Source: Minisyncoccota bacterium (lineage in GTDB: Bacteria > Patescibacteriota > Minisyncoccia > Phycocordibacterales > UBA9973). From it: a stretch of DNA of 64,000 bases. The position numbers and the translations under genes were made by a program. Position 1 is the first letter of the stretch. Each line of letters begins with the position of its first letter. This document shows, one piece after another, positions 13,559-59,170 of the stretch. The notes below the pieces were generated by a model. That model was given only the letters and a program-made list of their open reading frames with translations. It searched no databases and had not been told where the DNA came from. The stretch covers positions 22,240-86,239 of the forward strand of contig JARLIG010000004.1 in the NCBI GenBank assembly GCA_031291825.1. Reading direction: 5' to 3'.

Positions 13559-13582
13559 CTATTGTATGCTAAAATTGGATTT

Positions 13583-22785: not shown

Positions 22786-24204
22786 GTGACTCAAGAACAA
22801 GCTTTAGATATTTTAAAAACTGGCGCGAATGTTTTTCTCACAGGCGAGCCGGGGGCTGGGAAGACGCATACCATAAATACTTTTGTGGATTATTTGCATA
22901 GATGTGGTGTCGAGCCGGCGGTGACAGCTTCGACGGGTATTGCTGCCACGCATATCGGCGGAATGACTATTCATTCTTGGAGTGGAATCGGAATTAAAAC
23001 AAAATTGGATAAATACGATTTGGATAAAATTGCGAGCAGTGAATATATTGCCAAGCGCATTAATCGCACGAAAGTATTAATCATTGACGAGGTGTCGATG
23101 TTGTCTGCAAATACACTAGATATGGTGGATATGGTTTGTCGGGAGGTGAAACAAAGCGGTGAACCTTTTGGCGGCATCCAGATTGTTTTAGTTGGTGATT
23201 TTTTTCAATTACCACCAATCATTAAAACAGATTTTACGCAAAATAAACAAAGTTCATTTATTTCTGACAATGGAGGTTCTAAAATTTTTGCCTGTGATAG
23301 CGGAGCATGGCAGAGGGCACGGCTCGTCGTGTGCTATCTGACCGAACAACATAGACAAGACGATAAAGATTTTCTGTCGGTGCTTTCAGCTATCCGTGGC
23401 AATAATGTTTTGGAAGAGCATAGAAATTATATAAATTCTAGGCAAATTGATAATTATGATATGCCAGAAAATACCACAAAGCTTTTTTCGCACAATTTTA
23501 ATGTAGACAAAGTGAATGATGCGGAACTTTCGAAAATAGAAGATGTATCGAAGAATTTTGAAATGATTTCAACTGGGAATGACAAATTGGTAGAAATTTT
23601 AAAGAAGGGATGTTTGTCTCCAGAAAATTTAGAACTGAAAGTCGGAGCGGTGGTCATGTGTACAAAAAATAACCAGAAAGAACATTTTGTTAATGGGACG
23701 CTGGGAATTGTCATAGAATTTGATGAATTTAGCGGGTATCCAATTATCAAAACCAGAAGTGGATACAAGGTGACTATCTCGCCGATGGATTGGGCGGTTG
23801 AAGAAAATGGAAAAATTCGAGCGCAGATAACTCAAGTGCCACTCCGTTTGGCTTGGGCGATAACCGTGCACAAAAGCCAAGGCATGAGTCTAGACGCGGC
23901 AGTCATGGATTTATCGCAAGTGTTTGAATACGGGCAGGGGTATGTGGCGCTGTCTCGCGTGCGCAGACTTTCTGGGCTATACATTCTCGGCATAAATGAA
24001 CAAGCTTTAAAAGTTAGCCCAAAAATCTTAGAAAAAGATATTGATTTTAAAAAACAATCCAAAGAAGCAGTAAAAGTTTTTGGAAAATTGTCGGCAGATG
24101 AACTCAAAAAAATGCATGAGAATTTTGTCATTGCTTGTGGAGGAAAAAAGCAAAAAAGAGGAATAATGAAAAAAGAAAAATTTTATGCTAAAATCAGCAA
24201 ATAA
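22786..24204 (+). CDS. PIF1/RecD-family ATP-dependent DNA helicase; a GTG start is predicted.
   Basis: Walker A LTGEPGAGKTHT, Walker B LIIDEVSML and the segment ITVHKSQGMSLD are present. Confidence 0.65.
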   Translation: MTQEQALDILKTGANVFLTGEPGAGKTHTINTFVDYLHRCGVEPAVTASTGIAATHIGGMTIHSWSGIGIKTKLDKYDLDKIASSEYIAKRINRTKVLIIDEVSMLSANTLDMVDMVCREVKQSGEPFGGIQIVLVGDFFQLPPIIKTDFTQNKQSSFISDNGGSKIFACDSGAWQRARLVVCYLTEQHRQDDKDFLSVLSAIRGNNVLEEHRNYINSRQIDNYDMPENTTKLFSHNFNVDKVNDAELSKIEDVSKNFEMISTGNDKLVEILKKGCLSPENLELKVGAVVMCTKNNQKEHFVNGTLGIVIEFDEFSGYPIIKTRSGYKVTISPMDWAVEENGKIRAQITQVPLRLAWAITVHKSQGMSLDAAVMDLSQVFEYGQGYVALSRVRRLSGLYILGINEQALKVSPKILEKDIDFKKQSKEAVKVFGKLSADELKKMHENFVIACGGKKQKRGIMKKEKFYAKISK

Positions 24205-27200: not shown

Positions 27201-27755
27201 TTGAAATTAAAAAATGAGCAAGATGTGGAAAGTGTGCATCTGACCGAATGGCCAAAAACTGAGAAAGTAAATACCCAGATTCTTGATGATATGAAAAAAG
27301 TTCGAGAAATCGTGACGCTTGGTCTTGAGGCTCGCCAAAAAGCTGGAATAAAAGTGCGTCAGCCACTAAATCAATTACAAATCAAGAATTACGAACTAGG
27401 AATTGAATACACAGAATTGATTAAAGAAGAATTGAATGTAAAAGAAATAAAAGAAAATAAAAACATCGAAAACGAAGTTTTGTTGGATGTGAAAATTGAT
27501 GAAGAATTAAAACAAGAGGGAGATTACCGTGAATTGATGCGCGCTCTGCAAGATATGCGCAAGAAAATGGGACTTACCCCAAGTGATGTTGTTTCAGTGG
27601 TTTTTGAAACCGACGAAGCAGGTAAAAATTTAATTGAAAAATTTGAAGCAGATATGAAAAAAACCATACTAGCGTCAAAAATAAAATTCAAAGAAAGCGG
27701 TGGTGAGGAAATAAAAATAGATGAGTTGGTTTTTAAAGTAAAAATAGAAAAATAA
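24204..27755 (+). CDS. ileS: Isoleucyl-tRNA synthetase (type-2/eukaryote-like) carrying an inserted histidine-phosphatase (PGAM-like) domain.
   Basis: Catalytic-core motifs PPTANGKPGIHHLEAR...GWDTHGLPVE, Zn knuckles WCPRCG and CEDCK, and DQTRGWFYTL are present. The editing domain contains TTPWTLPGN. KMSKS is present; the segment DLHRPYID is normally found in type-2 IleRS. The insert spans roughly nt 25764-26300 and contains VIRHGEAENN, SPFLRTRET, PGGES and IVSHG. Confidence 0.8.
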   Translation: MAENIEHNKSEAALREERILEFWKENKIFEKSLKQTEGEKEFIFYEGPPTANGKPGIHHLEARAFKDAIPRYKTMQGFHVRRKGGWDTHGLPVELQVEKKLGLNSKKGIEEYGIAKFNQECKESVWEYLEVWNKFTKRIGYWVDQENAYVTYHNDYIESVWNIVKKINEQKLLYKDYKVVPWCPRCGTALSSHELAQGYEEVKDLSVTAKFKVVPSAQKNPSALLHPMGGTFRLQDSSVPTYILAWTTTPWTLPGNVALAVGEKLDYVKIKVGNEFFILAKARLSVVEGEYEIIEEIKGKDLLGLEYEPLYPFLSNTVFETEKWKMEKAYKVYGAGFVTTEDGTGVVHTAVMYGQDDFVLGTKVGLPKHHLVGLDGRFLAGTGIFEGRFVRDEDVAVDVIKDLAHRGLLFKKEKYEHSYPHCWRCKTALIYYARDSWYIKVSDPLIKDKMISENKTINWEPSHIRDGRFGEWLREIKDWAVSRERYWGTPLPVWTCEDCKTVEVIGSVEEIKDKTKKSGNKYFVIRHGEAENNAKNIYSSDPNINHLTEKGKEQVLKTAKELINKKVSIVYCSPFLRTRETVEIVSEKIGFPKDKIIYDDRIRELGLGDFSGKSSEKYLDFAEGKTWTFDEKIPGGESYQDTKNRFGEFLYEIDQKHHNETILIVSHGLAVEVIPSIIEGADKKRSLEIFTAQESNKTASLHKEHNFIPIPHNENYELDLHRPYIDEVKLVCSCGGNLVRTKEVMDVWLDSGAMPFAQDHYPFENKKWVDGVGYPADFISEAIDQTRGWFYTLHAVGVLMGRGKAYKNVICLGHLLDAKGKKMSKSLGNIVDPWEAMDKYGADTLRLWMYSVNQPGESKNFDEKTVALLHQQVFGLLYNVLAFYELYRDKEAERSYLENSKRYNLENLNVLDQWILARLDELIKISTDNLDNYKLLEPTRAIRDFVGDLSTWYLRRSRDRIKDANNEDSKEAKQTLYFVLKTLVKVMAPFAPLAAEDIWLKLKNEQDVESVHLTEWPKTEKVNTQILDDMKKVREIVTLGLEARQKAGIKVRQPLNQLQIKNYELGIEYTELIKEELNVKEIKENKNIENEVLLDVKIDEELKQEGDYRELMRALQDMRKKMGLTPSDVVSVVFETDEAGKNLIEKFEADMKKTILASKIKFKESGGEEIKIDELVFKVKIEK

Positions 27756-30372: not shown

Positions 30373-31716
30373 ATGAAAAGCACAGAAAAAAATAAAAAAG
30401 AAGATGATTTGATGGAAAAGATAGTCTCGCTCTGCAAGAGAAGAGGATTTATTTTTCAGGGTTCGGAAATTTACGGAGGGCTCGGTGGAACTTTTGATTG
30501 GGGTCATTTTGGCGTCGCCTTAAAAAACAATATCAAACAAAATTGGTGGAAAAAATTTGTCGAATCTCGCACCGATATGTATGGAGTGGATGCGGCGATT
30601 TTGATGCGCCAAGAAGTCTGGCAAGCTTCTGGTCACGTGGCTGGTTTTGCTGATCCGATGGTGGAATGTGAAAAATGCCACTCTAAATTTAGAGCAGACC
30701 AAATACAGGTAGAGACGTCCAATGCCTCCGGAGACGCTTCACGTCTGGCCTGCCCGAACTGTGGAGGAAAATTAGGCGAAGCGAAACAATTCAACATGAT
30801 GTTTAAGACGCATGTCGGTGCAGGAGAAGACAGTAGTTCTATTTCTTATCTTCGTCCCGAAACAGCGCAAGGTATGTTTGTTAATTTTAAAAATACGGTA
30901 GACGCTTTTCATCCAAAACTTCCTTTTGGTATGGCGCAAATAGGTAAAGCTTTCCGCAATGAAATAGCTCCGCGCGATTTTGTTTTTCGCGCTCGAGAAT
31001 TTGAGCAAATGGAAATAGAATATTTTGTTCGCTCAGCTGATTGGGAAAAATATTTTGAATATTGGAAGGGCGAGATGCTGGATTGGATGGAAGAAGTTGG
31101 AATTGATATGGGAAAAGTTCATGAGCTTGAAGTGGACAAGGAAGACCGAGCGCATTATTCTAGTCGTACAGTGGATTTTGAGTTTGATTTTCCTTTCGGC
31201 AAGAAAGAATTATTCGGTTTGGCCTATCGAACAGATTTTGATTTAAAACAACACAAACTAGAATACATCGACGAAGAAGCCAAAGAAAAGATGGTTCCGC
31301 ATGTCATCGAGCCAACCTTCGGCGTTGACCGAGCAGTGTTGACAATACTTTTATCAGCTTATACCGAAGATGATAGTGGAGAAGAAATGCGTTCCTATTT
31401 AAAACTTAAGCCAAATATTGCCCCAGTTATTTGCGCTGTTTCTCCGTTATTAAAAAACAAACTAGAATTAGTTGAATATGCTAATACAAAAGTCTATGCT
31501 CCACTCAAAGCAGAATTTGGTAAAGTTGCTTGGGATGACAACGGCAACATCGGTAAACGCTATCGCCGTCAAGATGAAATCGGCACACCATTTTGTATTG
31601 TAGTTGATTTCGATACGCTTACTGACAACACTGTGACAGTTCGCGACCGTGATACAGGTAAGCAAGAGAGAATAAAAGTAGTGGATTTGAAAAAGTATAT
31701 TCAAGAAAAAATATAA
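30373..31716 (+). CDS. glyQS: Glycyl-tRNA synthetase, alpha2 (GlyQS) type.
   Basis: The segment GSEIYGGLGGTFDWGHFGVALKNNIKQNWW is present. Class II motifs and a C-terminal anticodon-binding domain are present. Confidence 0.85.
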   Translation: MKSTEKNKKEDDLMEKIVSLCKRRGFIFQGSEIYGGLGGTFDWGHFGVALKNNIKQNWWKKFVESRTDMYGVDAAILMRQEVWQASGHVAGFADPMVECEKCHSKFRADQIQVETSNASGDASRLACPNCGGKLGEAKQFNMMFKTHVGAGEDSSSISYLRPETAQGMFVNFKNTVDAFHPKLPFGMAQIGKAFRNEIAPRDFVFRAREFEQMEIEYFVRSADWEKYFEYWKGEMLDWMEEVGIDMGKVHELEVDKEDRAHYSSRTVDFEFDFPFGKKELFGLAYRTDFDLKQHKLEYIDEEAKEKMVPHVIEPTFGVDRAVLTILLSAYTEDDSGEEMRSYLKLKPNIAPVICAVSPLLKNKLELVEYANTKVYAPLKAEFGKVAWDDNGNIGKRYRRQDEIGTPFCIVVDFDTLTDNTVTVRDRDTGKQERIKVVDLKKYIQEKI

Positions 31717-36463: not shown

Positions 36464-36507
36464 CCCAGACGTCCAACGTCTGGAAGGTTCCAGACGTTGG
36501 ACGTCTG
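36464..36507. repeat. REP-like palindromic element, a double unit: CCCAGACGTCCAACGTCTGG-AAGGTT-CCAGACGTTGGACGTCTG.
   Basis: Two inverted copies of the 19-nt hairpin unit CCAGACGTTGGACGTCTGG are seen directly. The element is intergenic between tatD and rpsF. Confidence 0.8.
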
Positions 36508-36547
36508 TAGACTAATAAACTTTACTTTTCAGCATCCTTTTGCTAAT

Positions 36548-37556: not shown

Positions 37557-37570
37557 ATTATTATAAATTT

Positions 37571-37611
37571 CCAGACGTTGGACGTCTGCAAAGCAAGACG
37601 TACAACGTCTC
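37571..37611. repeat. REP-like element: CCAGACGTTGGACGTCTG plus AAGCAAGACGTACAACGTCT.
   Basis: It is near-identical to the copy at 44710-44752. Confidence 0.8.
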
Positions 37612-37617
37612 AAAATT

Positions 37618-43493: not shown

Positions 43494-43527
43494 ACGAATA
43501 TATTAACACAAAAATTCAATTTATTTT

Positions 43528-43623
43528 AGAGACGTCCAACACCTGCTTTAGCAGATGTTGGACGTCTAGAGATTTAATTTTTCCCAGACGTTGGACATCC
43601 GCAGAGCGGGTGTCCAACGTCTG
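43528..43623. repeat. Two REP-like hairpins: AGACGTCCAACACCTGCTTTAGCAGATGTTGGACGTCT and CCCAGACGTTGGACATCCGCAGAGCGGGTGTCCAACGTCTG.
   Basis: Long imperfect palindromes are seen directly. They lie in the divergent intergenic region upstream of the ftsK start. Confidence 0.8.
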
Positions 43624-43815: not shown

Positions 43816-44697
43816 ATGTTTGGAGAAGAAAAAAATCTCAAAGACAGTCAAAAAAGTTCTGAAAAAGACACCTTCTTTATACCGACTCTTTACGGACAAA
43901 CCGGAGCCTTTCATCTCGGCTCTTACACTAAAACTCACAAGCTTATTACCGCGCTTTACATGGTCACAGACATCATAGACAAAGACGAACCACTCAGAAA
44001 TAAATTAAGGACACTTGGCACCGGAATTATATCGGACATGCATTTGGTTCAGCAAAATAATACTGGATATACTATGTCCTTTATCTTCAACAAGGTCTCG
44101 GAAATCATGTATTTCTTGGACATTGCTTCCGCAGTGAATATTATTTCCGAAATGAATTGCAATATCTTGAGAAAAGAATTTTTTGAATTAAACGAAGCTA
44201 TAAAACAATCTATTGATAAAGACGAAATCGCAGACAGGCGTCAGATTGATTTGTCAGAATTTTTCAAAGAAGAAGTTTCTCCTCTCTTTAAGGAAGAAGA
44301 TATCCGACGTCGTACACCTGCTTTAGCAGATGTCCGACGTCAGGTTATTGGACATCATGCTTCCACCAGAATCGGAGTGCAGAAGGGTAGCACTTTAATG
44401 AAAGCTTTGAACGAAAAAATGTCCAAAAGAAATGAGACTAGTCACAATACGAGTGATGTCTTTGATGAACTAAAAAAAGAACGACGAGATAGTATCATAA
44501 GCATCATCAAGACCATCGGCACTGGTGCCACGATAAAGGACATAAAGGACAAAGCACATGCTATGCCTGAACAATTCAAATCCCTCATGTCCGTTAGCGA
44601 AAAAACTCTCCAAAGAGAACTCGTTTCTATGGTTCAAAACGGTGTCCTTAATAAGACTGGAGAAAAGCGCTGGAGCCGCTATTTCATTAAAAATTAG
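43816..44697 (+). CDS. Hypothetical protein with a C-terminal winged-helix-like region. It contains an in-frame REP-like insertion.
   Basis: A palindrome is embedded at 44303-44344 and translates to IRRRTPALADVRRQ. The C-terminus ...TLQRELVSMVQNGVLNKTGEKRWSRY resembles a wHTH domain. Confidence 0.45.
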   Translation: MFGEEKNLKDSQKSSEKDTFFIPTLYGQTGAFHLGSYTKTHKLITALYMVTDIIDKDEPLRNKLRTLGTGIISDMHLVQQNNTGYTMSFIFNKVSEIMYFLDIASAVNIISEMNCNILRKEFFELNEAIKQSIDKDEIADRRQIDLSEFFKEEVSPLFKEEDIRRRTPALADVRRQVIGHHASTRIGVQKGSTLMKALNEKMSKRNETSHNTSDVFDELKKERRDSIISIIKTIGTGATIKDIKDKAHAMPEQFKSLMSVSEKTLQRELVSMVQNGVLNKTGEKRWSRYFIKN

Positions 44698-44709
44698 AGA
44701 CGTTTAAAA

Positions 44710-44752
44710 TCAGACGTTGGACGTCTACTAAAGCAAGACGTACAACGTCTGA
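44710..44752. repeat. REP-like element: TCAGACGTTGGACGTCT...AAGCAAGACGTACAACGTCTGA.
   Basis: It is a sibling of the 37571 copy. It lies directly after the stop of ORF 43816..44697 and probably acts as a terminator. Confidence 0.8.
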
Positions 44753-45314
44753 TTTTTCTCTTTAGGCACCATTTTCTACTTGCAATTCGTATAAAAATAT
44801 GAGAACATATATGCGTGATAACTTTTCTCGCCCTTGAGTCTCTTGGGCGAGTAACTCAAATTTTATAAGCATTTTGCTTAGCAAAATTTGGCGAGTTATC
44901 CACATAATATATTGCTCTATTTTGGAGCTATATATTATAATGTGTTTGTGTCTATAGGAATGCACAAAGTTGTGTTTTCTATATTCGCGAATATTTATTT
45001 TCACCTTAATTATTGTTTGTAATTTCGTCGAAAAAATTGCAAATGATAACCTGGAGAAAATAGATATCCCGACCGAGTCGGGATTATGAAAGGTCATTGA
45101 AAACTAAATATCAATTTTGCTTCTGCATCTAAACGTGCGGATCTAGAATTGTTGTTTTTTGTTTTCAACGTTTGCTTATCTCTGTTCGTTTTTTATTTTT
45201 TCCGCTTCATTATTAAAATTTATTAGTCATTAGCGGCGGATAAAAAACGATAGGAAAAAATACGCTTTTAGTTTTGTCGAAACTAATTAATGGCGTAGAA
45301 ATTAGAAAAAATTT

Positions 45315-49741: not shown

Positions 49742-49816
49742 TGACGTTGGACATCCGCCAAAGGCGGATGTCCAACGTCGGCTCCAGACGTGGAGCGTCT
49801 TGGAGGTTTATCCACA
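49742..49816. repeat. Composite REP-like element with a TTTATCCACA tail: GACGTTGGACATCCGCCAAAGGCGGATGTCCAACGTC + GGCTCCAGACGTGGAGCGTCTTGGAGG + TTTATCCACAG.
   Basis: The same architecture recurs at 51511-51598. Confidence 0.8.
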
Positions 49817-49896
49817 GTGCATATTGTAATATGAAGACATCTGGTTCGGCATATGTGATAATGAAAGAGCTTTATTATTAATATCTTTATAATTTT

Positions 49897-50388
49897 ATGG
49901 AAAACAAAAAGAAAATGGCGGTGTATATTGTCTTGGGAGTTCTTTTAGTTGTTGTCGCTGGTTTTATTTTTTGGTCTATCGTAGTTTCTACGAGACCGCA
50001 ACCTGCTTCGACTGGCACACCTGTAGCTCTTACTCCTGCTGTAACGCCTACTCCTACAGAAGATACAACGACTGGTAGTGTACACACTGGTTCTGCTGTT
50101 ACTCTTGCTTACGCAGATGCACTAATTACATATGCAAATGCTCGTCTTCAACTCGACACGAATTGTCAGGCGTTAGCTAGTCCTTCCAACTTAGTTTTCA
50201 GAAATAACTCATTACTAATGGTTGATAATCGTGCTCCCGTCACTCGTACTGTTCACATCGGTTCGGTGTTCACGATTAAACCTTATGGTTTTAAAATTGT
50301 AAAACTTTCCAGCTCGACTCTTCCGGCCACTTGGCTCGTAGATTGTGACGCATCTCAAAACGTCGCCACGATTACTATTGAAAAATAA
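49897..50388 (+). CDS. Hypothetical membrane-anchored protein with a P/T-rich linker.
   Basis: An N-terminal TM helix is present. No catalytic motifs were recognised. Confidence 0.4.
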   Translation: MENKKKMAVYIVLGVLLVVVAGFIFWSIVVSTRPQPASTGTPVALTPAVTPTPTEDTTTGSVHTGSAVTLAYADALITYANARLQLDTNCQALASPSNLVFRNNSLLMVDNRAPVTRTVHIGSVFTIKPYGFKIVKLSSSTLPATWLVDCDASQNVATITIEK

Positions 50389-50432
50389 AATAGTCTAGAA
50401 AACGGTCAAAAAACATACGTCAGACACTTCAA

Positions 50433-50479
50433 AAACCGACGTTGTACACCCGCAAGGCGGATGTCCAACGTCGGTTTTT
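50433..50479. repeat. REP-like hairpin in a terminator configuration: AAAAACCGACGTTGTACACCCGCAAGGCGGATGTCCAACGTCGGTTTTTGTTTTT.
   Basis: A long GC-rich stem is flanked by A- and T-runs. Confidence 0.8.
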
Positions 50480-50529
50480 GTTTTTCGGAACGTCTTTATG
50501 TTTTAACCTAGTTTTGCTAAACTATATCC

Positions 50530-50715
50530 ATGTTTGACCTTTTGCTAAAAGTTGCTTTTCTGATATTTATCTTGCCTATTTACATCGCGCAGGAAGCTTA
50601 TGCAAAGTTCAAGAAACACATGAGCAAAGGGAACCGCTGGCATTATTTTCCCTATGTGCTTTTAGCTATTCTCCTAATTCTCCTTATAATCTTGCTTATT
50701 ATAGGCTACAAATAA
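50530..50715 (+). CDS. Hypothetical small two-TM membrane protein (61 aa).
   Basis: It is a short hydrophobic ORF and may not be real. Confidence 0.25.
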   Translation: MFDLLLKVAFLIFILPIYIAQEAYAKFKKHMSKGNRWHYFPYVLLAILLILLIILLIIGYK

Positions 50716-50789
50716 CTCCAGACATTCCCAGACGTTGGACGTCTGTATCCTTACAGACGTCCAACGTCTGGAGGTTTATCCACATCCGC
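50716..50789. repeat. Composite REP-like element immediately upstream of the RAYT gene: CTCCAGACATTCCCAGACGTTGGACGTCTG-TATCCTTA-CAGACGTCCAACGTCTGGAGGTTTATCCACA.
   Basis: It is a double hairpin with a TTATCCACA tail. Confidence 0.8.
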
Positions 50790-50836
50790 TTCATGAAGTA
50801 TGTATGAGATAATAAAACTGTAATTTTTATTATTTT

Positions 50837-51502
50837 ATGAGAAAACATCCACTCGTAACTAATCAATATTATCATATATACAACAGGGGAGTTGATAAAC
50901 GAGATATCTTTTCAGACAAGAAAGATCTCAATCGTTTTATTTTGAGTATCAAGCAATTCAATAAAATTTATCCAGTTGGCAGTATCCGAGACAACGTGCG
51001 AGATAAAATAGTTTCTAAATATTTAAAACGACGAGGCAAAGATGCTGATGCCTTGGTTTCTATTGTTTGTTTTTGTTTAAATCCAAATCATTTTCATTTT
51101 ATTTTAAAGCAAGAAGCTGATGGTGGTATTTCTGAATTTCTAAAACGTCTTTTGGGTGGATATACAAAATATTTTAATTTAACCCACAAACGTAGTGGCG
51201 CCCTGTTTCAGGGTAGGTTTAAATCACGCTTGATAGACAGTGAACAATATTTTTTGAAAATTTTTCCATACGTGAATATCAACCACATGATTCATGACAT
51301 ACCGGAAGAAAAAAGATTTTTGGTTTCTTCTAGTGACGTTGAATACGAAAAAATGGTCTTTGATATTGTCTCTAAAAAAGAAGCTGAAAATCTCCTCGCT
51401 TTTTATGGCAATAAAAACAATTTTAAAAATGAATGCCTAAAAGTATCTTCAATAATTAGAGAACAAAGAGAAGAGGTGTCTTCATTTCTAGAAGAAGAGT
51501 AG
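50837..51502 (+). CDS. IS200/IS605-like HuH tyrosine transposase, probably a REP-associated tyrosine transposase (RAYT / TnpA_REP).
   Basis: Motifs present are YYHIYNRGVDKRDIF, the HuH motif NPNHFHFILK, the Tyr region GGYTKYFNLTHKRSGALFQGRFKSRLI and YFLKIFPYVNINHM. The gene is flanked on both sides by REP-like elements. Confidence 0.7.
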   Translation: MRKHPLVTNQYYHIYNRGVDKRDIFSDKKDLNRFILSIKQFNKIYPVGSIRDNVRDKIVSKYLKRRGKDADALVSIVCFCLNPNHFHFILKQEADGGISEFLKRLLGGYTKYFNLTHKRSGALFQGRFKSRLIDSEQYFLKIFPYVNINHMIHDIPEEKRFLVSSSDVEYEKMVFDIVSKKEAENLLAFYGNKNNFKNECLKVSSIIREQREEVSSFLEEE

Positions 51503-51510
51503 ATTTCGTG

Positions 51511-51598
51511 TTCCAGACGTTGGACTGACGTTGTACACCCGCAAGGCGGATGTCCAACGTCGGCTCCAGACGTCCAACGTCTGGAGGGTTATCCACTT
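51511..51598. repeat. Composite REP-like element immediately downstream of the RAYT gene, ending in GGTTATCCACT.
   Basis: The sequence is TTCCAGACGTTGGACTGACGTTGTACACCCGCAAGGCGGATGTCCAACGTCGGCTCCAGACGTCCAACGTCTGGAGGGTTATCCAC. Confidence 0.8.
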
Positions 51599-51630
51599 TT
51601 ACAAATTTTTCTTAGGCATACAATTAAATC

Positions 51631-52275
51631 ATGGAAAATATAAAAACCACATGGGTCCGCAAAATTTTTAAAATTTTAAAGTGGACTTTTTTAGTTTTAA
51701 TCTGTTTATTTATTGTTGCTTGTGTTTGGCGCGGTATTTATCTTTCTAATAAAAAGAAAGAACAAGCAAAAACAGACGCCGAAGTGGAAAAAATTCATAA
51801 CACCAAACTTACATTGGCTGATGTGATGGGTACGAATCTTCCGCCTGACCCTGGAGCATTGGCTGACCAGACTATTGCCGGTGTAGATGCCAACAATAAT
51901 GGCATTCGTGACGATGTCGAGTTAGCTATTTTTAATGCTTATCCAAAATCTGCAAAAACTAGAGCCGTGCTTTTACAACTTGCCCTAGCAATGGAAATGG
52001 AAAATAAACAATCGTTCATTAATAGTGAAATAGTTGATGCTGTTCTTGATAAAGAAGACAGTGCTATTTTTTGTTCAGCAGATCTTATTCCCGGAGATGG
52101 TGCAACTGAATCAAGAATATTCTTAACTACAAATAGATATTTACGTACGCTAGCAAAGGAGCAATATAATACTGATAGTAGAATCCAAGCAGAAAAAAAA
52201 TTTATATCTTATTCGAAAAGTAAAACAGAATTAACACCATTTTGTGATATAGATTTATCTACTTTATCAAACTAA
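51631..52275 (+). CDS. Hypothetical membrane-anchored protein (214 aa).
   Basis: An N-terminal TM helix is present. No motifs were recognised. Confidence 0.35.
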   Translation: MENIKTTWVRKIFKILKWTFLVLICLFIVACVWRGIYLSNKKKEQAKTDAEVEKIHNTKLTLADVMGTNLPPDPGALADQTIAGVDANNNGIRDDVELAIFNAYPKSAKTRAVLLQLALAMEMENKQSFINSEIVDAVLDKEDSAIFCSADLIPGDGATESRIFLTTNRYLRTLAKEQYNTDSRIQAEKKFISYSKSKTELTPFCDIDLSTLSN

Positions 52276-52284
52276 AGTAAAAAT

Positions 52285-55200
52285 ATGAAGAACAATTTTA
52301 TAAAAGAATACGGCAAAGTTGTTGTATGTTTTATGTTTCTTGTTGTTTTTCTGATACCCAAGTTCTCTTTTGCTTCTGGTCAGTGCTCTAAGAGTGGATA
52401 TACGGTTTTAGTTATTAATGGAGTAAATACCACTCAACAGGAGGCTGAAAACAATGCAACTAATCTAGAATCTAAATTTAAACCAACATATAATGGAGAA
52501 AACCTTAATATTAAATATCTTTATAACCCTACTCATACTGCAATAGCCGATCTTCTTGATGCAGGAGTGCAAAAAACCGATGACCAGTCTATGTCTGACC
52601 TTCAAGATTCAGATTTTGCGCAGATGTTAAATGATGCTAGTAATAAAGTTAAAACACAGAAACTTTTACTAGTTGGTCATTCTCAGGGAAATTTTTATGC
52701 CAATACTTTTTACGATACAGTTGTTGATGCTACTGGCGGTATTCCGAGTCAGTCTATTGGTGTTTATGCGGTGGCTACGCCAGCTAACCGTGTTTCCGGA
52801 ATAAATAGTGCAAATTATATAACTTCTGACACAGACCAAGTGATAGACCATATTCCTGGCATTTTAAAACCAAATGTCCACATAGATTTTAAAGCCAGTG
52901 ACGGTGATTTAATGGGCCATGATTTTTCTAAAATATATTTAAAATATGAAGGTGCAAAAATTGTTTCCGATATAGATACCTCACTTAATAAACTAAAAAC
53001 CAACGATATTCAAAATGAAAACGTTGCTTGTATTAATCCACCGAAATTAACTTTGCCACAAAAAATACAAGGAACGATTTTGTCTACGCTTGACCATGTG
53101 ACGCTTCCATTTCAAGATGCTCTTGTTTATGTTGCTACTGGTGTAACTAATGTTACTGTCGCTATCGCTAATACGACGGTAAATCTTACCGGCTCAGCTA
53201 TTTCTGCTGTTTCTTCTTTGTTTAACCAAACTGTCAGCAATACCAATACTTTGGCGACAAGTGGCGGAGGGGATGTAATAAATTCGATAGAACCCACAAC
53301 ACTAAGTAATTCTACAAGTACTCAACTGACAGAAAATTTACAACCAACTCCACAATTTACATCACCACAAAATGTTTCAATTATAAATTCTTCACCGACG
53401 ACCGAAACCACTTCTTCAAATTCAGCAGCATCATTTGTCGGTAGGGGTGGCGGTGGAGAAGTTGCTATGGCAGAGGAAAATGACGAAGGAGCAATAATTC
53501 CACCAACCATTCCACCGATAGATAATAATCCACCATCTACTGATGTTACTCCTCCCGTCATCACTGTTTTGGGAGACAATCCTGCAGTGGTTGTGCAATA
53601 TGATACTTACACCGATGCTGGGGCTACTGCCACTGACGACGTTGATGGTGCTATTAATGTTGTTGCCAGCGGAACAGTTGATACGACAACGGTTGGCATT
53701 TACACTATTACTTACACGGCGACAGATTCCTCAGGAAATATTGCAACGGCGACTCGTAGTGTAACAGTAGTTGCTTCACAGTCCACTACGAATCCTCCTC
53801 CGTCACCACTCAGTACTTTTACGATTGATAAAGATACAACTCTGACTGCTGGTGAGTACAATTATGAAAATTTATTAATAACCAATAACGCAATATTAAC
53901 CTTACAAGGAGACCCTACTTCCTCGAGTGCTTTCAAGGGAGTAAAAATTAACGCAGATAATATTACTATCGATCCTGGTTCTTCTATTTCTGCAGATGGA
54001 GAGGGTTATGCAGGAGGTGATGGACCAGGAAATTCTTCAGTGTACTATGTCGGGGCAAGTTATGGAGGACTTAGTTATAATGGAGCTACGTATTCGCAAA
54101 CTTATGGTTCAGCTATAAAGCCTACAGACTTAGGCAGCGGAGGACATAGTTCTGGCGGTGGGGCGATTGAGCTAAATGTCTCAAATACTTTTACCGATGA
54201 TGGTACTGTCTCTGCTGATGGTAATATTTCTAGCAGTGGTGGAAGTATTTATGTGACAGCTCAAAATATTACTGGTAGTGGAATATTGCAAGCTGATGGT
54301 GGAAATCTTTTTGGGAGCGGTTATTTCCAAAGTCCAGGAGGGGGTGGAAGAATTGCCGTTTATTATCAAACATCCACTTTTAGCGGAACAGCAGAAGCAA
54401 AAGGTGGATGTGGTAGTTACGATAGTTCGACTAATTCTTGCGCGGGCGACGGAACGGTTGGTTTTTTTAACACGAGTACTAATGATTTATATCTAAACAA
54501 CTCTTGGGAATTTCTACAAGCAGATGCACCCTTTTTATTTAATAATATTTATATTTCAAATGGTGCCAAGGTAACATCGGAAAATGATGTAACGATAACA
54601 ACCAAAAATAATTTTATCGTTGATAAAAATTCTTCTTTTGCTTTAGCTGATAATCAAATATTAAATTCTCCGACACTTATAATTAGCAGTAATTCAACTT
54701 TAACTCTTTCGGGAACTGAAAAAATTACTTCCAACGACCTTATTCTTACTGGAAATTCCACTTTAACTATCGTTCCTCAAAAAATACTTTCTTTAACGAT
54801 TCCAAATATTCATATTGATTCTGGTTCTTCTATTTCTGCAGACGGAAAAGGTTATGGTCAAAGTGAAGGTCCAGGAGAACCAGCGGTAAGTGGTGCTGGC
54901 GCAAGTTATGGTGGTGTCGGTTATCAAAATTCTTTAACCTCAACATATGGATCTCAAACAAATCCAGTCGATTTAGGAAGCGGTGCGGCGTTGAGTGGTG
55001 GCGGAGCCATACAACTTATTGTTTCAAATACTTTTGAAAATGATGGAATAGTTTCTGCTTCTGGTAGCGCTTCTGGTAGTGGAGGAAGTATAAATATAAA
55101 TACAAACAGCTTGTCTGGTACTGGTGCATTTAGTGCGGACGGTGGAGGACTTTACGGCAATGGTTATTTTCAGGGCCCAGGTGGAGGGGGACGGGTTGCT

Positions 55201-55998
55201 ATTTCTTACAACGCCACTTCTTTTAGCGGAACAGTAGAAGCTAAAGGAGGATGTGGCAGTTATGATGGTTGGAGTAGTTCTTGCGCAGGTGGTGGGACGG
55301 TTTATATTCTAAATGAATCAGTTCCAGTCCAGAGTTCTTTAAAAACAATTACAGCATTTGATTTTTCAAATTTAACGCCGATTGTTTCTGGTGTTGTTGA
55401 TGAAACGAACCATGCTATTTCTTTGACTGTCCCTTATGGAACGGATATAACGACTCTCGTGCCTATGATTACTATTTCAGATAAAGCATCAATTAGTCCA
55501 ACCACAAACACGTCTCAAGATTTTACGAATCCAGTTACTTATAAAATTACTGCAGAAGATGGATCAACACAAAATTATGTTGTGAATGTGACCGTAGCGC
55601 CCAACCCAGATCCTCCAGTGACACCGCCTCAAACACCAAGCACGACACTACCTTCAATCACAAGTTATACATTTAATGGTACGGCTGGAAACATAATAAT
55701 AAATCCGACAGCAATAACCCCTTTTTCTTTAATGATGACTGCTAGTGAAAATGTAAATTGGATGTCTATAAAAATTGAAAATCAAAACGATTCAAGCACT
55801 TATAAAATTTTTCAGTCTGGGGCAGGCTGTGTGGATGGCACAAATACTTGCACAAAAAGTTGGGACGGTGCTTTGTCAAAAGGGGGGTTGTTGCAAAATG
55901 GAACTTTTCGAATAAAGGTTCATGTCAAAGACAGCGCGGGCAATGAATACGACGATTATCTTACCCCATATATAATTACAGTTGACACTTCGTTGTAA
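52285..55998 (+). CDS. Giant secreted protein (1237 aa). It has an N-terminal alpha/beta-hydrolase (lipase-like GHSQG) domain, an Ig-like domain, two tandem ~190-aa Gly-rich beta-helix-like repeats and C-terminal Ig-like domains.
   Basis: A signal peptide is present. The nucleophile elbow is LLVGHSQGNFY. The two repeats are GSGGHSSGGGAIELNVSNTF...KGGCGSYDSSTNSCAGDGTV and GSGAALSGGGAIQLIVSNTF...KGGCGSYDGWSSSCAGGGTV. Confidence 0.6.
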   Translation: MKNNFIKEYGKVVVCFMFLVVFLIPKFSFASGQCSKSGYTVLVINGVNTTQQEAENNATNLESKFKPTYNGENLNIKYLYNPTHTAIADLLDAGVQKTDDQSMSDLQDSDFAQMLNDASNKVKTQKLLLVGHSQGNFYANTFYDTVVDATGGIPSQSIGVYAVATPANRVSGINSANYITSDTDQVIDHIPGILKPNVHIDFKASDGDLMGHDFSKIYLKYEGAKIVSDIDTSLNKLKTNDIQNENVACINPPKLTLPQKIQGTILSTLDHVTLPFQDALVYVATGVTNVTVAIANTTVNLTGSAISAVSSLFNQTVSNTNTLATSGGGDVINSIEPTTLSNSTSTQLTENLQPTPQFTSPQNVSIINSSPTTETTSSNSAASFVGRGGGGEVAMAEENDEGAIIPPTIPPIDNNPPSTDVTPPVITVLGDNPAVVVQYDTYTDAGATATDDVDGAINVVASGTVDTTTVGIYTITYTATDSSGNIATATRSVTVVASQSTTNPPPSPLSTFTIDKDTTLTAGEYNYENLLITNNAILTLQGDPTSSSAFKGVKINADNITIDPGSSISADGEGYAGGDGPGNSSVYYVGASYGGLSYNGATYSQTYGSAIKPTDLGSGGHSSGGGAIELNVSNTFTDDGTVSADGNISSSGGSIYVTAQNITGSGILQADGGNLFGSGYFQSPGGGGRIAVYYQTSTFSGTAEAKGGCGSYDSSTNSCAGDGTVGFFNTSTNDLYLNNSWEFLQADAPFLFNNIYISNGAKVTSENDVTITTKNNFIVDKNSSFALADNQILNSPTLIISSNSTLTLSGTEKITSNDLILTGNSTLTIVPQKILSLTIPNIHIDSGSSISADGKGYGQSEGPGEPAVSGAGASYGGVGYQNSLTSTYGSQTNPVDLGSGAALSGGGAIQLIVSNTFENDGIVSASGSASGSGGSININTNSLSGTGAFSADGGGLYGNGYFQGPGGGGRVAISYNATSFSGTVEAKGGCGSYDGWSSSCAGGGTVYILNESVPVQSSLKTITAFDFSNLTPIVSGVVDETNHAISLTVPYGTDITTLVPMITISDKASISPTTNTSQDFTNPVTYKITAEDGSTQNYVVNVTVAPNPDPPVTPPQTPSTTLPSITSYTFNGTAGNIIINPTAITPFSLMMTASENVNWMSIKIENQNDSSTYKIFQSGAGCVDGTNTCTKSWDGALSKGGLLQNGTFRIKVHVKDSAGNEYDDYLTPYIITVDTSL

Positions 55999-56001
55999 TT
56001 T

Positions 56002-56046
56002 CTCAGACGTTGGACTGACGTTGGACGTCTGGAGGGTTATGCACAG
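56002..56046. repeat. REP-like element (deletion variant): CTCAGACGTTGGACTGACGTTGGACGTCTGGAGGGTTATGCACAG.
   Basis: It shares its 5' half with the 51511 copy and has the TTATGCACA tail. Confidence 0.8.
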
Positions 56047-56334
56047 TATGCTATAATACGCCGATGATATCTAAACATTTTTTTAAAGCACTGACAGCCT
56101 TTTTGACTATAATCGTTATTGGATTGATTAGTTTTATTATCATAAATTCTTTAAGTCAAAACAGCGGAGCATCCACTATTCCAGCTAGCCAAGTTCAGGT
56201 TGCAAAATAGCATATATGTGCTATATTATAAATACCGCAGAGAAAGTAGGCAAACATTAAGTCCTATTTAGTGGGTCGATATTTTGCGGCCTATTGGCCG
56301 TTTTTTATTTTATAGTAAAAGACAAAACAAATTT

Positions 56335-56823
56335 ATGTTACAAAAATCAAAAAAAGAAGAAATGATCAAAGACTTCGAGAAAGCCATCAAGGGCTCTCAG
56401 TCTATGGTCTTTGTTAACTTTCATGGTTTGAAAGTTAAAGACGAGACTAGCTTGCGAAGCGCCTTGCGTGGACAGGGGGTAGACTACAAAGTTGGACGAA
56501 AGACTTTGCTCAAGCGTGCACTGACCGGTAAAGCAAAAGGAGAAATTCCAGAGCTTGCTGGAGAAGTCGCGGTGGCATATTCTGCTGACCAAACAGCTTC
56601 CGCTCGTGAAATTTATAATTTCCAAAAAGCACACAAAGGACTTTTGGAAATTATCGGAGGAATTTTTGATGGAAACTTTCTTAGCAAAGAAGCCATGACT
56701 GAAATCGCCATGATTCCAAGTCGTGAAGTTCTTTACGCTCAGTTCGTCAACCTTATCAATTCACCAATTCAACGTTTCGCGGTTGTCTTGGATCAAATCG
56801 CAAACAAAAGCTCCGCTTCTTAA
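56335..56823 (+). CDS. rplJ: Ribosomal protein L10.
   Basis: The N-terminus is MLQKSKKEEMIKDFEKAIKGSQSMVFVNFHGLKVKDETSLRSALR. The gene is followed by rplL. The likely start is 56335 rather than 56284. Confidence 0.8.
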   Translation: MLQKSKKEEMIKDFEKAIKGSQSMVFVNFHGLKVKDETSLRSALRGQGVDYKVGRKTLLKRALTGKAKGEIPELAGEVAVAYSADQTASAREIYNFQKAHKGLLEIIGGIFDGNFLSKEAMTEIAMIPSREVLYAQFVNLINSPIQRFAVVLDQIANKSSAS

Positions 56824-56919
56824 AATTTTTCTCGCTCCTCCCAATCTAAAGTTGGGTCCCACGCGAATAAAAATTTTAAGAAACTACGCTTTTAATTATT
56901 AAATTAATAATATAATCAT

Positions 56920-57288
56920 ATGGAAAAATTTGCAGACCTTATAAAACAAATAGAAACTATGTCCGTCGCTGACCTTCATGCGCTCGTCAAAGCACTCGAA
57001 GAAAAGTTCGGAGTCTCGGCTGCAGCTGTCGCGGTAGCGGGTCCTGCTGCTGGAGCAGCGGATGCAGCTGAAGAGAAAGATGCATTTACTGTCGTGCTAG
57101 CCTCAGCTGGTGAACAAAAAATCGCAGTTATGAAAGTCGTAAAAGAAGCTCTTGGTCTTGGACTCAAAGATGCAAAAGATTTAGTTGATGCTGCGCCTTC
57201 CACCTTGAAAGATGGAATGAAGAAAGCTGAAGCTGAAGCTTTGAAGAAGCAGATAGAAACTGCTGGTGGCAAAGTTGAGTTGAAATAA
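56920..57288 (+). CDS. rplL: Ribosomal protein L7/L12.
   Basis: There is an Ala-rich hinge. The C-terminal domain is [27 protein letters not shown]...GGKVELK. Confidence 0.9.
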
Positions 57289-57308
57289 TAAATAGGAAAG
57301 TTTACAAT

Positions 57309-57338
57309 AAAAGCACTCCCCTCGGAGTGCTTTTAATT
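57309..57338 (+). terminator. Rho-independent terminator AAAAGCACTCCCCTCGGAGTGCTTTT after rplL.
   Basis: A 7-bp GC stem, a 4-nt loop and a T-run are present. Confidence 0.7.
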
Positions 57339-57340
57339 TT

Positions 57341-59098
57341 ATGGACAATAAATCATCTAGACAAAAAGTAGCGCTTATCTCTGTATATGACAAGACGGGC
57401 ATTAAAGAATTTGCAAAAAATCTAGTAGATTTGGGCTGGAAAATAGTCTCTTCTGGTGGCACAGCTAAACATTTAACAGAAGCGGGTATGCCCGTGACTG
57501 ACGTAGCGGAAATTACCGGCATGCCACCAATTCTTTCACACCGAGTTTTGACGCTACATCCGAAAATCCATGGCGGGCTTTTGGCGCTTGATACATCGGA
57601 GCATTTAGCAGAGCTGGAAAAATATGGGATTCCTTGGATTGATTTAGTTTGTTGTGATTTATATCCACTGGAGGAGGAAATAAAAAACTCTAGCGCGACG
57701 CGAGAATCAGTTATTGAAAAAACAGATATTGGTGGACCGACAATGCTTCGTTCGGGGGCAAAAGGGAGGCGCATAACTATTTGTGACCCGAGCGATAGAG
57801 AAAAAGTAATTGAGTGGTTAAAAAAAGGCGAGCCTGAACGTGAAGAATTTTTAAATAATTTAGCAGCTAAGGCGGAAGCAGTAATTGCAAAATACTGTTC
57901 TGCTTCTGCCGAGTATCACAGTAAAGGAGAGCTCAAAGGAATTTTTGGAAAGAAAGAAATAGAATGCGCATATGGGGAAAATGCATATCAAAAACCAGCC
58001 AGCTTATATAGAAATTTAAATGTGCATAACACTCCAGACGGTGGACGTCTGGAAGCTACCAGACGTCCAACGTCTGGAGACCCATTAGCCATACATAATT
58101 GGCAACTCGTGGCAGGCAGTCCGCTTTCCTATAATAATATTTGCGATGTGGATAGAATGATGCAAACGATGACACATATTGGCGCTGGTTTTGAGAAAAA
58201 TTTTGGAAAAGTTCCAGACATCGCGATTGGCGCAAAGCATGGCAATGCTTGTGGGGCAGCGTTTGCTGAAGAAGAAATTAATGCGATTGATAATATGCTC
58301 TTGGGAGACTTGCGCGCAATTTTCGGCGGTTCGGTGATGCTAAATTTTAATGTAGATGAAAAAATTGCGGAAGAATTAATCCATAAATATGCAGGTGCTG
58401 GGAGACGATTGCTGGACATTGTCGCGGCACCATCTTTTTCTGCCGAGGCTATAGAGATTTTATCTCGCAAAAAAGGTAAATGCAGAATTTTAGTAAATCC
58501 AAACATTTTGAAAGCAGGATTATCTTCTTTGGATACAACTTCTAGGTTTCGTTACGTGCGTGGGGGATTTTTGACTCAACCGAATTATACTTTTGTTCCA
58601 AGATTGCAAGAGCCAGAGATGTCGGTATTCCGCCAAGGCGGAAGCCCGACACCTGTGGCGATTATACAAGATGTCATTCTCGCTTGGGCTGTCGGATGCA
58701 CATCAAATAGCAATACAATTACAATTGTGAAAGATGGCAGACTTTATGGCAATGGCGTAGGACAACAAGACCGTGTAGGGGCCGCCAAGCTTGCAATTTT
58801 TCGCGCAGACGATGCCACCGCTTTTGCTGTGGATAACCCTCCAGACGTTGGACGTCTGGAAGCTTCCAGACGTCCAACGTCTGGGACAGGGGCTGATTTA
58901 GAAGGGGCTGTAGCTTGCAGTGATAGCTTCTTTCCTTTCCCAGATGCGCCGGAAGTACTAATAAATCGGGGGATAAAGACCATCTTTTCCACTAGTGGCT
59001 CAGTAAATGACGATAAAATTATAGAACTTTGCAAGACAAAAAACGTAAATCTAATAATGCTTCCAGACTCTGAAGCCAGGGGATTCTACCAGCATTAA
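57341..59098 (+). CDS. purH: Bifunctional AICAR transformylase / IMP cyclohydrolase (PurH) carrying two in-frame REP-like insertions.
   Basis: The N-terminal MGS-like motifs are ALISVYDKTGI...SSGGTAKHL...RVLTLHPKIHGG. The C-terminal AICARFT motifs are SPLSYNNICD, ACSDSFFPFPD and FYQH. The inserted peptides are PDGGRLEATRRPTSGD and PDVGRLEASRRPTSGT. Confidence 0.75.
   Translation: MDNKSSRQKVALISVYDKTGIKEFAKNLVDLGWKIVSSGGTAKHLTEAGMPVTDVAEITGMPPILSHRVLTLHPKIHGGLLALDTSEHLAELEKYGIPWIDLVCCDLYPLEEEIKNSSATRESVIEKTDIGGPTMLRSGAKGRRITICDPSDREKVIEWLKKGEPEREEFLNNLAAKAEAVIAKYCSASAEYHSKGELKGIFGKKEIECAYGENAYQKPASLYRNLNVHNTPDGGRLEATRRPTSGDPLAIHNWQLVAGSPLSYNNICDVDRMMQTMTHIGAGFEKNFGKVPDIAIGAKHGNACGAAFAEEEINAIDNMLLGDLRAIFGGSVMLNFNVDEKIAEELIHKYAGAGRRLLDIVAAPSFSAEAIEILSRKKGKCRILVNPNILKAGLSSLDTTSRFRYVRGGFLTQPNYTFVPRLQEPEMSVFRQGGSPTPVAIIQDVILAWAVGCTSNSNTITIVKDGRLYGNGVGQQDRVGAAKLAIFRADDATAFAVDNPPDVGRLEASRRPTSGTGADLEGAVACSDSFFPFPDAPEVLINRGIKTIFSTSGSVNDDKIIELCKTKNVNLIMLPDSEARGFYQH
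58024..58081. repeat. REP-like element inside purH: TGTGCATAAC-ACTCCAGACGGTGGACGTCTGG-AAGCTA-CCAGACGTCCAACGTCTGGAG.
   Basis: It is a double hairpin plus a TGTGCATAAC tail, and it is in-frame in the CDS. Confidence 0.8.
58828..58887. repeat. REP-like element inside purH: GTGGATAACC-CTCCAGACGTTGGACGTCTGG-AAGCTT-CCAGACGTCCAACGTCTGGG.
   Basis: It is a double hairpin plus a GTGGATAACC tail, and it is in-frame in the CDS. Confidence 0.8.
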
Positions 59099-59170
59099 TT
59101 TATCCCCAGACATTCCACGTCTAGAGCTCCGCGCTGTTGATTTTTTTATAAAAAGCATTACAATACAAGG

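Follow-up and report, generated by a model that had tools for sequence, protein, structure and literature searches.

In the current analysis of a 64,000-nucleotide stretch from a Minisyncoccota bacterium (Patescibacteria; assembly GCA_031291825.1, contig JARLIG010000004.1, positions 22,240 to 86,239 of the forward strand), referred to here as the window, two copies of a palindromic repeat have been identified inside the purH gene. The gene encodes the bifunctional AICAR formyltransferase / IMP cyclohydrolase and both copies are read in its frame. We consider it likely that these segments are copies of a non-autonomous element of the REP/REPIN type (repetitive extragenic palindromic sequences and their hairpin-forming doublets), spread by a transposase resembling the REP-associated tyrosine transposases (RAYTs) and tolerated in loops of the enzyme. 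The two copies had been pointed out in an initial annotation of this DNA; a third palindromic insert in purH, the transposase gene and the recurrent use of the same insertion loops in relatives go beyond it.

Two copies of the repeat within purH

The host gene and the two copies are organised as follows.

57341..59098, + strand: purH, an intact open reading frame (ORF) of 585 residues, host of the elements.
58021..58080, - strand (antisense to purH): element copy 1 (site 1), with the tail TTATGCACA...GGAG at 58021-58035 and the arms at 58034-58052 and 58059-58077; it encodes VHNTPDGGRLEATRRPTSG.
58828..58886, - strand (antisense to purH): element copy 2 (site 2), with the tail at 58828-58842 and the arms at 58841-58859 and 58866-58884; it encodes VDNPPDVGRLEASRRPTSG.

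A 44-nt core (CCAGACGTTGGACGTCTGGAAGCTTCCAGACGTCCAACGTCTGG) is found at 58841-58884 with no mismatch and at 58034-58077 with two mismatches and nowhere else in the window, the number of matches expected from shuffled sequence being 0. The halves of the palindrome in copy 1 (58032-58055 and 58056-58079) are 92% complementary, and those of copy 2 (58841-58862 and 58863-58884) are 100% complementary and form a perfect 22-bp palindrome. In an alignment with intergenic copies, taken from the window and from a related genome, the two purH segments prove to be full-length members of the family including the tail, and copy 2 equals the family consensus in both arms. The core matches and the 58-nt alignment thus confirm the initial annotation, which had placed full copies with their tails inside the PurH ORF.

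The translations in the purH frame are VHNTPDGGRLEATRRPTSGD for copy 1 and VDNPPDVGRLEASRRPTSG for copy 2, the two copies being read in the same frame, and the ORF continues through them uninterrupted. The opposite strand of the purH copies translates as VPDVGRLEASRRPTSGG, so that the earlier claims of in-frame read-through and of similar peptides from both orientations hold. The encoded peptides would form hydrophilic loops in PurH (..PDGGRLEATRRPTSG.. at site 1 and ..PDVGRLEASRRPTSG.. at site 2), and peptides spanning the insert junctions, such as NLNVHNTPDGGR and PTSGTGADLEGAVACSDSFFPFPDAPEVLINR, can be given from the translation. Site 1 is the linker between the two enzyme domains of PurH and precedes the SPLSYNN strand, while site 2 is the loop preceding the SDSFFPF motif; the placement noted before, ahead of SPLSYNNICD and ACSDSFFPFPD respectively, is correct.

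At the level of RNA, copy 1 folds into a hairpin of -39.2 kcal/mol (z = -8.1) and copy 2 into one of -43.6 kcal/mol (z = -7.2). A scan for terminators finds no T run at the purH copies, which are not terminator-like in the sense strand. The flanks of site 1 read ..AATTTAAA before and GACCCATT.. after the insert, those of site 2 read ..GCTTTTGC and GACAGGGG.., and no target-site duplication is present in the flanks of either site.

The segments as additions to loops of PurH

PurH has been compared with 120 relatives of 69-81% identity and 521-601 residues. The modal length of the site 1 loop in these proteins is 12 residues against 28 in the PurH of the window, and that of the site 2 loop is 16 against 31, corresponding to a net gain of 16 and 15 residues. 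The coordinates given in the initial annotation lie within 1-3 nt of ours, but its figure of about 17 added residues per copy is slightly too high. Two relatives, P0003 and P0004, lack both family inserts at the DNA level. Site 1 in them is uninterrupted, ..AAT TTA (A/G)AT ATA AAA AAT GAC.., which is read as ENL(N/D)IKND; at site 2 a short loop is present in P0003, and different palindromes occupy the position in P0002 and P0004. The two inserts are therefore specific to a lineage, as had been supposed.

The alignment to the solved PurH structure 4ehi breaks exactly at both inserts. In the AlphaFold model of PurH the predicted local distance difference test score (pLDDT) is below 50 at residues 201-245 and is 58 at residues 501-510, the flanks being modelled with confidence. 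These comparisons support the placement of both inserts in predicted loops, in agreement with the earlier claim. Among unrelated PurH proteins, in which segments of equivalent length at these positions would have argued for an ordinary feature of the enzyme, one (PDB entry 9ou7) has a segment of similar length, at site 2. It does not refute the insertion, because it is unrelated in sequence and because close relatives have short loops.

Integrity of the purH gene

The Pfam families MGS and AICARFT_IMPCHas are assigned to PurH, giving an MGS-like cyclohydrolase domain followed by an AICARFT domain, and the fold predicted in the AlphaFold model matches every solved PurH/ATIC structure. All the residues invariant in an alignment of 111 PurH sequences are retained, including the catalytic Lys-His pair K299-H300. 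The ratio of nonsynonymous to synonymous substitution rates (dN/dS) of purH against three relatives is about 0.07, synonymous sites being saturated (dS 1.8 between the window and P0002). Since the ORF is intact, the invariant residues are kept and dN/dS is low, a pseudogene is excluded as far as sequence can tell; purH appears to be a functional gene under purifying selection, and the initial annotation was right in treating it as undisrupted.

That purH is nevertheless decayed, or that the inserts are artefacts of the assembly, is hardly credible. The source is a metagenome-assembled genome (MAG), the protein is matched at 100% identity by an NCBI entry from a 'Candidatus Pacebacteria' MAG and has been seen on one contig only, and repeats are a classic cause of misassembly. 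The intact and constrained reading frame speaks against both possibilities, as does the collinearity of both flanks of each insert with orthologous purH genes. Independent assemblies of relatives also carry analogous in-frame elements, and the sequence of P0002 is identical in its JGI and Logan assemblies.

PurH scores 359 bits against a cut-off of 402 bits for the NCBIfam equivalog, its relatives also fall below the cut-offs, and NCBI labels PurH and these relatives as 'hypothetical'. The lowering of curated-model scores by inserts is hence of practical concern for annotation. The purH gene is situated directly 3' of rplJ-rplL here (56284-59098) and in every relative examined for this (L001, L004, L097, L098, L100), a slot usually occupied by rpoB.

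Organisation of the repeat family in the window

The unit of the family is a 19-nt near-palindromic arm, CCAGACGT-YSR-ACGTCTGG. Two units are usually paired as an inverted doublet, able to form a hairpin of about 20 bp, and a conserved tail, GGAGGGTTATCCACA, follows on one side; the 58-nt family consensus is CTCCAGACGTTGGACGTCTGGAAGCTTCCAGACGTCCAACGTCTGGAGGTTTATCCACA. The arm has 20 matches in the window at 3 or fewer mismatches against 0 expected, and core 10-mers of the repeat number 30. Folding energies of the doublets range from -37 to -44 kcal/mol, z lying below -7, and five of the six reading frames of the element are free of stop codons. Of 14 family loci in the window 11 are intergenic, and seven of these 11 start 1-11 nt past a stop codon; the exceptions are the two in purH and a related hairpin within the ORF 43816-44697. 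The copies other than those at sites 1 and 2 are given below, with the strand where one is assigned.

36465..36508: tailless intergenic doublet, 4 nt past a stop codon.
37566..37617: diverged doublet in intergenic DNA, 9 nt past a stop codon.
43518..43623: two adjacent intergenic family hairpins (43518-43579 and 43585-43623).
44296..44345: type-B hairpin in frame, read as DIRRRTPALADVRRQ, inside the conserved ORF 43816-44697.
44706..44756: intergenic diverged doublet between convergent ORFs.
49743..49815, + strand: intergenic type-B hairpin with a single arm and tail.
50430..50480: intergenic type-B hairpin with A and T runs at its flanks (terminator-like).
50728..50784, + strand: full-length intergenic copy, doublet with tail, immediately upstream of the transposase gene.
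51513..51596, + strand: composite copy made up of a partial arm, a type-B hairpin, an arm and the tail GGAGGGTTATCCAC, directly downstream of the transposase gene.
56000..56045, + strand: intergenic partial copy with tail GGAGGGTTATGCACA, situated upstream of rplJ and 1 nt past a stop codon.
59103..59124: degenerate arm, 4 nt past the stop codon of purH.

The ORF 43816-44697 belongs to a family with 2673 matches and no Pfam domain, and its hairpin is no more than a candidate insertion, the linker in which it is found being variable throughout the family. The type-B hairpins at 50438-50472, 51527-51561 and 44296-44345 share the same two mismatches, GTTGTACACC opposite GATGTCCAAC. Their retention may reflect recognition of an imperfect hairpin on one strand, by analogy with the ends of the insertion sequences (IS) of the IS200/IS605 group.

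The tail (TTATCCACA/TTATGCACA) contains a perfect consensus DnaA box, TTATNCACA. This word has 9 matches in the window against 3.4 expected, five of which are in element tails, at 49808, 50776 and 56037 on the + strand and at 58021 and 58828 on the - strand. The tail-bearing intergenic copies (49802-56045) are all oriented with the surrounding genes (+), and the three tail-bearing intragenic copies, two in purH (58021-58842) and one at another locus (L050:380-447), are all antisense to the host gene. No RNA family of Rfam matches any copy of the repeat. A segment of the glyQS-type glycyl-tRNA synthetase gene (30713-30746 in the ORF 30373-31716; AGACGTCCAA...) has also been considered as an in-frame copy and rejected, the resemblance being partial and the region being not longer than in solved GlyRS.

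Association with a RAYT-like transposase

The repeat copies at 50728..50784 and 51513..51596 bracket a single transposase gene.

50837..51502, + strand: Y1 (HUH) tyrosine transposase gene, RAYT-like, 221 residues, single-copy, bracketed by repeat copies.

The Pfam family Y1_Tnp has been assigned to its product with 26.4 bits against a cut-off of 23 and is matched in all 27 aligned homologues. The residues H85-F86-H87 and Y109/Y112 are invariant in these homologues, and either of the two tyrosines is a candidate for the catalytic residue. In all, 3439 homologues have been identified, some of which are named 'REP element-mobilizing transposase RayT' or 'REP-associated tyrosine transposase' by JGI/NCBI. 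Many of them are found on contigs of 1-3 kb, suggesting that the repeats break assemblies, which is of practical concern too. The best 25 matches of the transposase model in Foldseek are to TnpA of IS608, ISDra2 and IS200 (IS200/IS605) and to the RAYT of E. coli (4er8).

An orthologue with 61-80% identity is encoded in five or six loci of other genomes (L004/L094, L026, L051, L034 and L072), all of which were fetched by a 17-mer of the repeat alone and not by the transposase. The doublet with its tail is present on both sides of the transposase gene in L026 and L051 and upstream of it in L004/L094. In L072 the hairpin sequence is changed on both sides of the gene and the tail GGTTATCCACA is kept. 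Repeat and transposase gene are arranged here as a REPtron, the layout by which REP/RAYT systems are defined (PMC5581495; PMC3733652). The 'Saccharibacteria' labels of several third-party annotation (TPA) assemblies are doubtful, because the L026 transposase is 74% identical to that of the window and lies within similar flanks. A second, distant Y1_Tnp gene of L004 (16604-17263, 34% identity) has no palindromes at its flanks.

Proposed mode of spread

The transposase at 50837-51502 would mobilise the hairpin-plus-tail units in trans as single-stranded DNA, a route that is established for the TnpA of IS200/IS605 and has been proposed for RAYTs (PMC5581495; PMC6006769). Most of the copies would persist just past stop codons. 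Copies within genes would survive only if they alter the length by a net multiple of three, are read in a frame free of stops and sit in a tolerant loop, and selection would remove all the other intragenic copies. In purH such a combination would be offered by the linker before SPLSYNN and the loop before SDSFFPF, and PurH would be made with extra hydrophilic loops in which the peptides are passengers. The transposase is presumably the mobilising enzyme of the repeat, and the inserts are presumably mobile.

Several observations weigh against this proposal. The transposase scores 30 bits with the NCBIfam model REP_Tyr_transpos (NF047646), below its cut-off of 80, and neither the GTAG nor the CGTC tag of the classified REP super-families is present in the element; for both reasons the system is called a RAYT-like new family here and not a classified member. 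No sequence-level match in the PDB is obtained for the transposase with either the single sequence or the 27-sequence profile, and the confidence of its structural model is modest (pLDDT 59.8). Nor are the insertions clean, as the net gain is 48 and 45 nt against about 58 nt for the element; either 9-13 nt of host sequence were therefore lost or the boundaries are ambiguous. Deletion of target DNA is not known for insertion of the IS200/IS605 type. Identity to the nearest PurH relatives reaches only 78-79% over the full protein length, and there is no near-identical empty-site strain among them. The copies of the family are confined to 36.4-59.2 kb of the window and are absent from its first 36 kb. 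That the inserts are translated, are not removed and are present in mature PurH is, moreover, what we infer from the sequence.

A third purH insert and the recurrent use of the same loops

A third insert has been identified in purH, between sites 1 and 2.

58612..58659: third palindromic insert in purH (site 3), of a different hairpin type; it encodes EMSVFRQGGSPTP and folds at -32 to -37 kcal/mol.

The minimal loop at this site in the relatives is about 17 residues shorter than in the PurH of the window. The site 3 palindrome shares 35 identical nt with that of P0025, although third codon positions of the two genes are only 50% identical. This segment is probably also a copy of a REP/REPIN-type element.

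Palindrome-like peptides occur at the same three loops, and at several more, in many PurH relatives. Perfect palindromes at the DNA level are present at site 2 of P0022, P0061 and P0018 and at site 1 of P0060; these have a common core, GACGTTGGACGTC...GACGTCCAACGTC, and different outer arms. P0002 carries at site 1 a copy of the family with a compensated centre (TCGAA/TTCGA), the same variant as in an intergenic copy on its own contig, so that the in-gene copy tracks the variant of its own genome. The palindromes at site 2 of P0002, P0004 and P0060 are unrelated and very stable (-37 to -62 kcal/mol). No other copies of the two P0004 purH palindromes are present in about 90 kb of the same genome, and these cannot therefore be called repeats. 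The loops of purH are recurrent insertion sites in the relatives, the recurrence presumably arising through tolerance of the sites rather than through targeting.

The main rival to the spread of a mobile element is that the inserts are old, vertically inherited loop insertions kept similar by gene conversion, concerted evolution or selection on the hairpin, the apparent hot spots being single ancient events followed by losses and replacements. We regard this as unlikely. It would accommodate the identical 3' junction at site 1 in the window and P0002, where ACGTCTGGA is followed directly by GACCCA despite the saturated synonymous sites, the identity over 35 nt at site 3 between the window and P0025, and the Mur ligase and cysteine desulfurase genes described below, in each of which two genomes share the position of the element. 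Most relatives, however, have a short loop. Parsimony on a neighbour-joining tree built from the 120 proteins requires at least five changes for the repeat family of the window at site 1 and again at site 2, and no fewer than 33 when any long insert at site 2 is counted, these counts being indicative only as the tree is rough. A precise loss would also have to recreate the ENL(N/D)IKND of P0003 and P0004, and at site 2 the window, P0002 and P0004 have palindromes of unrelated families. Ancient insertion with conversion leaves unexplained both the patchy distribution and the differing families at one site.

It is also conceivable, but quite improbable, that the hairpins or peptides have been recruited in purH and are adaptive, for example in translational pausing at the domain boundary, as an RNase III site for adjusting expression or as a new interaction surface. 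The location of site 1 in the linker between two enzyme domains, the stems of 20-22 bp with energies of -39 and -44 kcal/mol and the presence of some palindrome at the same three loops in many lineages would suit such a role. The inserts at one site differ completely between lineages, many relatives are devoid of any, and the same element occurs in unrelated proteins, all of which argue against recruitment. There is no sign of codon-level adaptation either, copy 2 being the family consensus in both arms.

Occurrence of the repeat in other genes and genomes

An exact 17-mer of the arm has been searched in 185,579 species genomes (596 Gb), and 92 loci were obtained. Single matches outside the Patescibacteria account for 25 of the 92; these have been disregarded because a collection of this size should give about 70 matches by chance. 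The core arm is common to many Patescibacteria genomes. In viral contigs only 3 single matches to the repeat are found, with no sign of carriage by phages.

Apart from purH, the same doublet is present in frame in Patescibacteria genes for a Mur ligase (two, at the same position), an ABC transporter, TopA, GatB and TsaD, in a class-V aminotransferase/cysteine desulfurase (two, at the same position and in another frame) and in an LTD-domain protein of L050, where it carries the tail and is antisense. The in-frame copies in purH, the LTD-domain protein, TopA, the ABC transporter and others give peptides of the DVGRLE...RRPTS type. Those of TopA and GatB are insertions relative to solved structures. 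At the Patescibacteria loci, nine of 34 doublets (26%) and six of 51 single arms lie within long ORFs, as counted from ORF spans rather than curated gene calls in a sample selected by the exact 17-mer. Single arms of the SDVGRLE type are seen in ORFs that resemble, judging from their translations, MutY (L016:6334-6350), CysRS (L022:4564-4580), a copper ATPase (L040:3008-3024) and MiaA (L057:3697-3713); the MutY-like ORF shows no obvious increase in length.

A second family of palindromes is found in frame in the ileS gene of the window (24204-27755), where the segment 24848-24925 is read as SAQKNPSALLHPMGGTFRLQDSS and consists of 19-nt arms around an inner hairpin. The segment is absent from the solved IleRS structure 8c8w, and its family is that of the PurH site 2 inserts of P0002, P0048, P0060 and P0097.

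The wide occurrence of the core arm in Patescibacteria also speaks for a further rival, in which the repeat acts as a signal in the sequence, for instance for DNA uptake or, given the DnaA-box tail, for protein binding, and is spread by recombination and mutation and tolerated in genes in the manner of the DNA uptake sequences (DUS) of Neisseria or the uptake signal sequences (USS) of Haemophilus. Inverted pairs just after genes and the excess of TTATNCACA in the element tails are likewise in its favour. Whole blocks of 45-48 nt have, however, been added to genes relative to their relatives, an origin that is not known for uptake signals. The bracketing of the Y1 transposase gene by the repeat in several genomes, the uneven density, with no copy in the first 36 kb of the window, and the structured element of 58 nt in place of a word of 9-12 nt all disagree with a signal. 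This reading is accordingly given very little weight.

Comparison with known repeat systems

Palindromic repeats that occur both in intergenic DNA and in frame within housekeeping genes are described for the Rickettsia palindromic elements (RPEs; Ogata et al. 2000, summarised in PMC10969869 and PMC3733652). The present element resembles the RPEs in its presence in intergenic DNA and in unrelated housekeeping genes, in its in-frame reading as a hydrophilic peptide where the fold can accommodate one and in the small, reduced genome of the host. Elements of the RPE-1 type are about 100-150 bp long and give 30-50 residues, whereas the present one has 58 nt and gives 15-19 residues; the RPEs differ also in sequence family and phylum, the present element being set apart by its length and its Patescibacteria host. 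According to PMC3733652, no transposase is linked to RPEs or to the CGTC REPs, in contrast to the repeat described here, which brackets a Y1 transposase gene. The parallel with Rickettsia drawn in the initial annotation is hence valid as an analogy in behaviour and does not extend to membership, given the 58-nt length, the Patescibacteria host and the link to a RAYT-like transposase.

With the REP/REPIN-RAYT systems of E. coli and Pseudomonas (PMC5581495; 4er8), the family shares palindromic inverted doublets that form a long hairpin and lie mostly outside genes near their 3' ends, as REPs typically do according to PMC3733652. Copies flanking a single-copy, vertically inherited Y1/HUH transposase gene are another common feature. 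The family differs from them in that its tag is the 3' tail GGAGGGTTATCCACA and not a GTAG tetranucleotide, in that its transposase is too diverged for the NCBIfam RAYT cut-off, and in that roughly one in four of the doublets sampled is intragenic, unlike the 'extragenic' REPs.

GTAG and CGTC REPs lying wholly within ORFs, as monomers or dimers, have been reported from Opitutus terrae, Thauera, Rickettsia conorii and others, adding 20-30 residues and sometimes occurring twice in a gene, often in genes related to DNA repair and tRNA (Di Nocera et al. 2013, PMC3733652). The hosts TopA, GatB, TsaD and IleRS of the present study match these classes of genes, while the sequence family and the host phylum are different. 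The use of the same enzyme loops by different families in different lineages, as seen here, has no counterpart in the accessible part of that report. Like the MITEs (miniature transposable elements with inverted repeats; ERIC, BOX and Correia-type, PMC10969869), the present repeats are small, non-autonomous and readable through ORFs. MITEs have terminal inverted repeats matching an IS, target-site duplications and a DDE transposase, whereas the purH copies are devoid of duplications and their partner is a Y1 enzyme. The DUS and USS are words of 9-12 nt, spread evenly at about 1 per kb with no transposase; the present repeat differs in all these respects, being 58 nt long, uneven and transposase-linked.

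In-frame palindromic repeats as such are therefore already known from the Rickettsia RPEs and from REPs in ORFs of several phyla (PMC3733652). No publication on REP/RAYT elements or in-frame palindromes in Patescibacteria was found in a search that most subscription journals lay outside. What seems to be new is a family with an unusual conserved tail, its host phylum, the large proportion of its copies inside genes and the fact that several families have repeatedly used the same loops in one enzyme. The phenomenon of 'selfish DNA inside protein-coding genes', best known from Rickettsia, thus occurs in the tiny genomes of Patescibacteria as well, and with a candidate mobilising enzyme. The PurH clade represents a natural experiment in which different palindromes appear to have entered at least three loops, repeatedly and independently of one another; it could be used in mapping positions of enzymes that tolerate insertions and in asking whether the elements create new protein surface.

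A broader and rather doubtful possibility is that RAYT-linked palindromes are a continuing major source of lineage-specific loop insertions in essential enzymes of Patescibacteria. The same loops would then be hit again either through targeting, for instance of structured single-stranded DNA, or solely through permissiveness, and the copies might be kept for a role of the hairpin and tail at the level of DNA or RNA, in view of the DnaA-box tail.

Other features of the window

A recJ-like ORF (13439-15322) has an in-frame palindrome at 14157-14243 with 22-nt arms that are 95% complementary and a folding energy of -37.8 kcal/mol; it is located between the DHH and DHHA1 domains (ENGEIAIL...KKIASSPF). 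The IleRS of the window comprises, at residues 523-685, a complete histidine-phosphatase domain (Pfam His_Phos_1, 114 bits) inside the class-I tRNA-synthetase domain. A 23S rRNA gene starts at 62449 and runs off the end of the window (64000).

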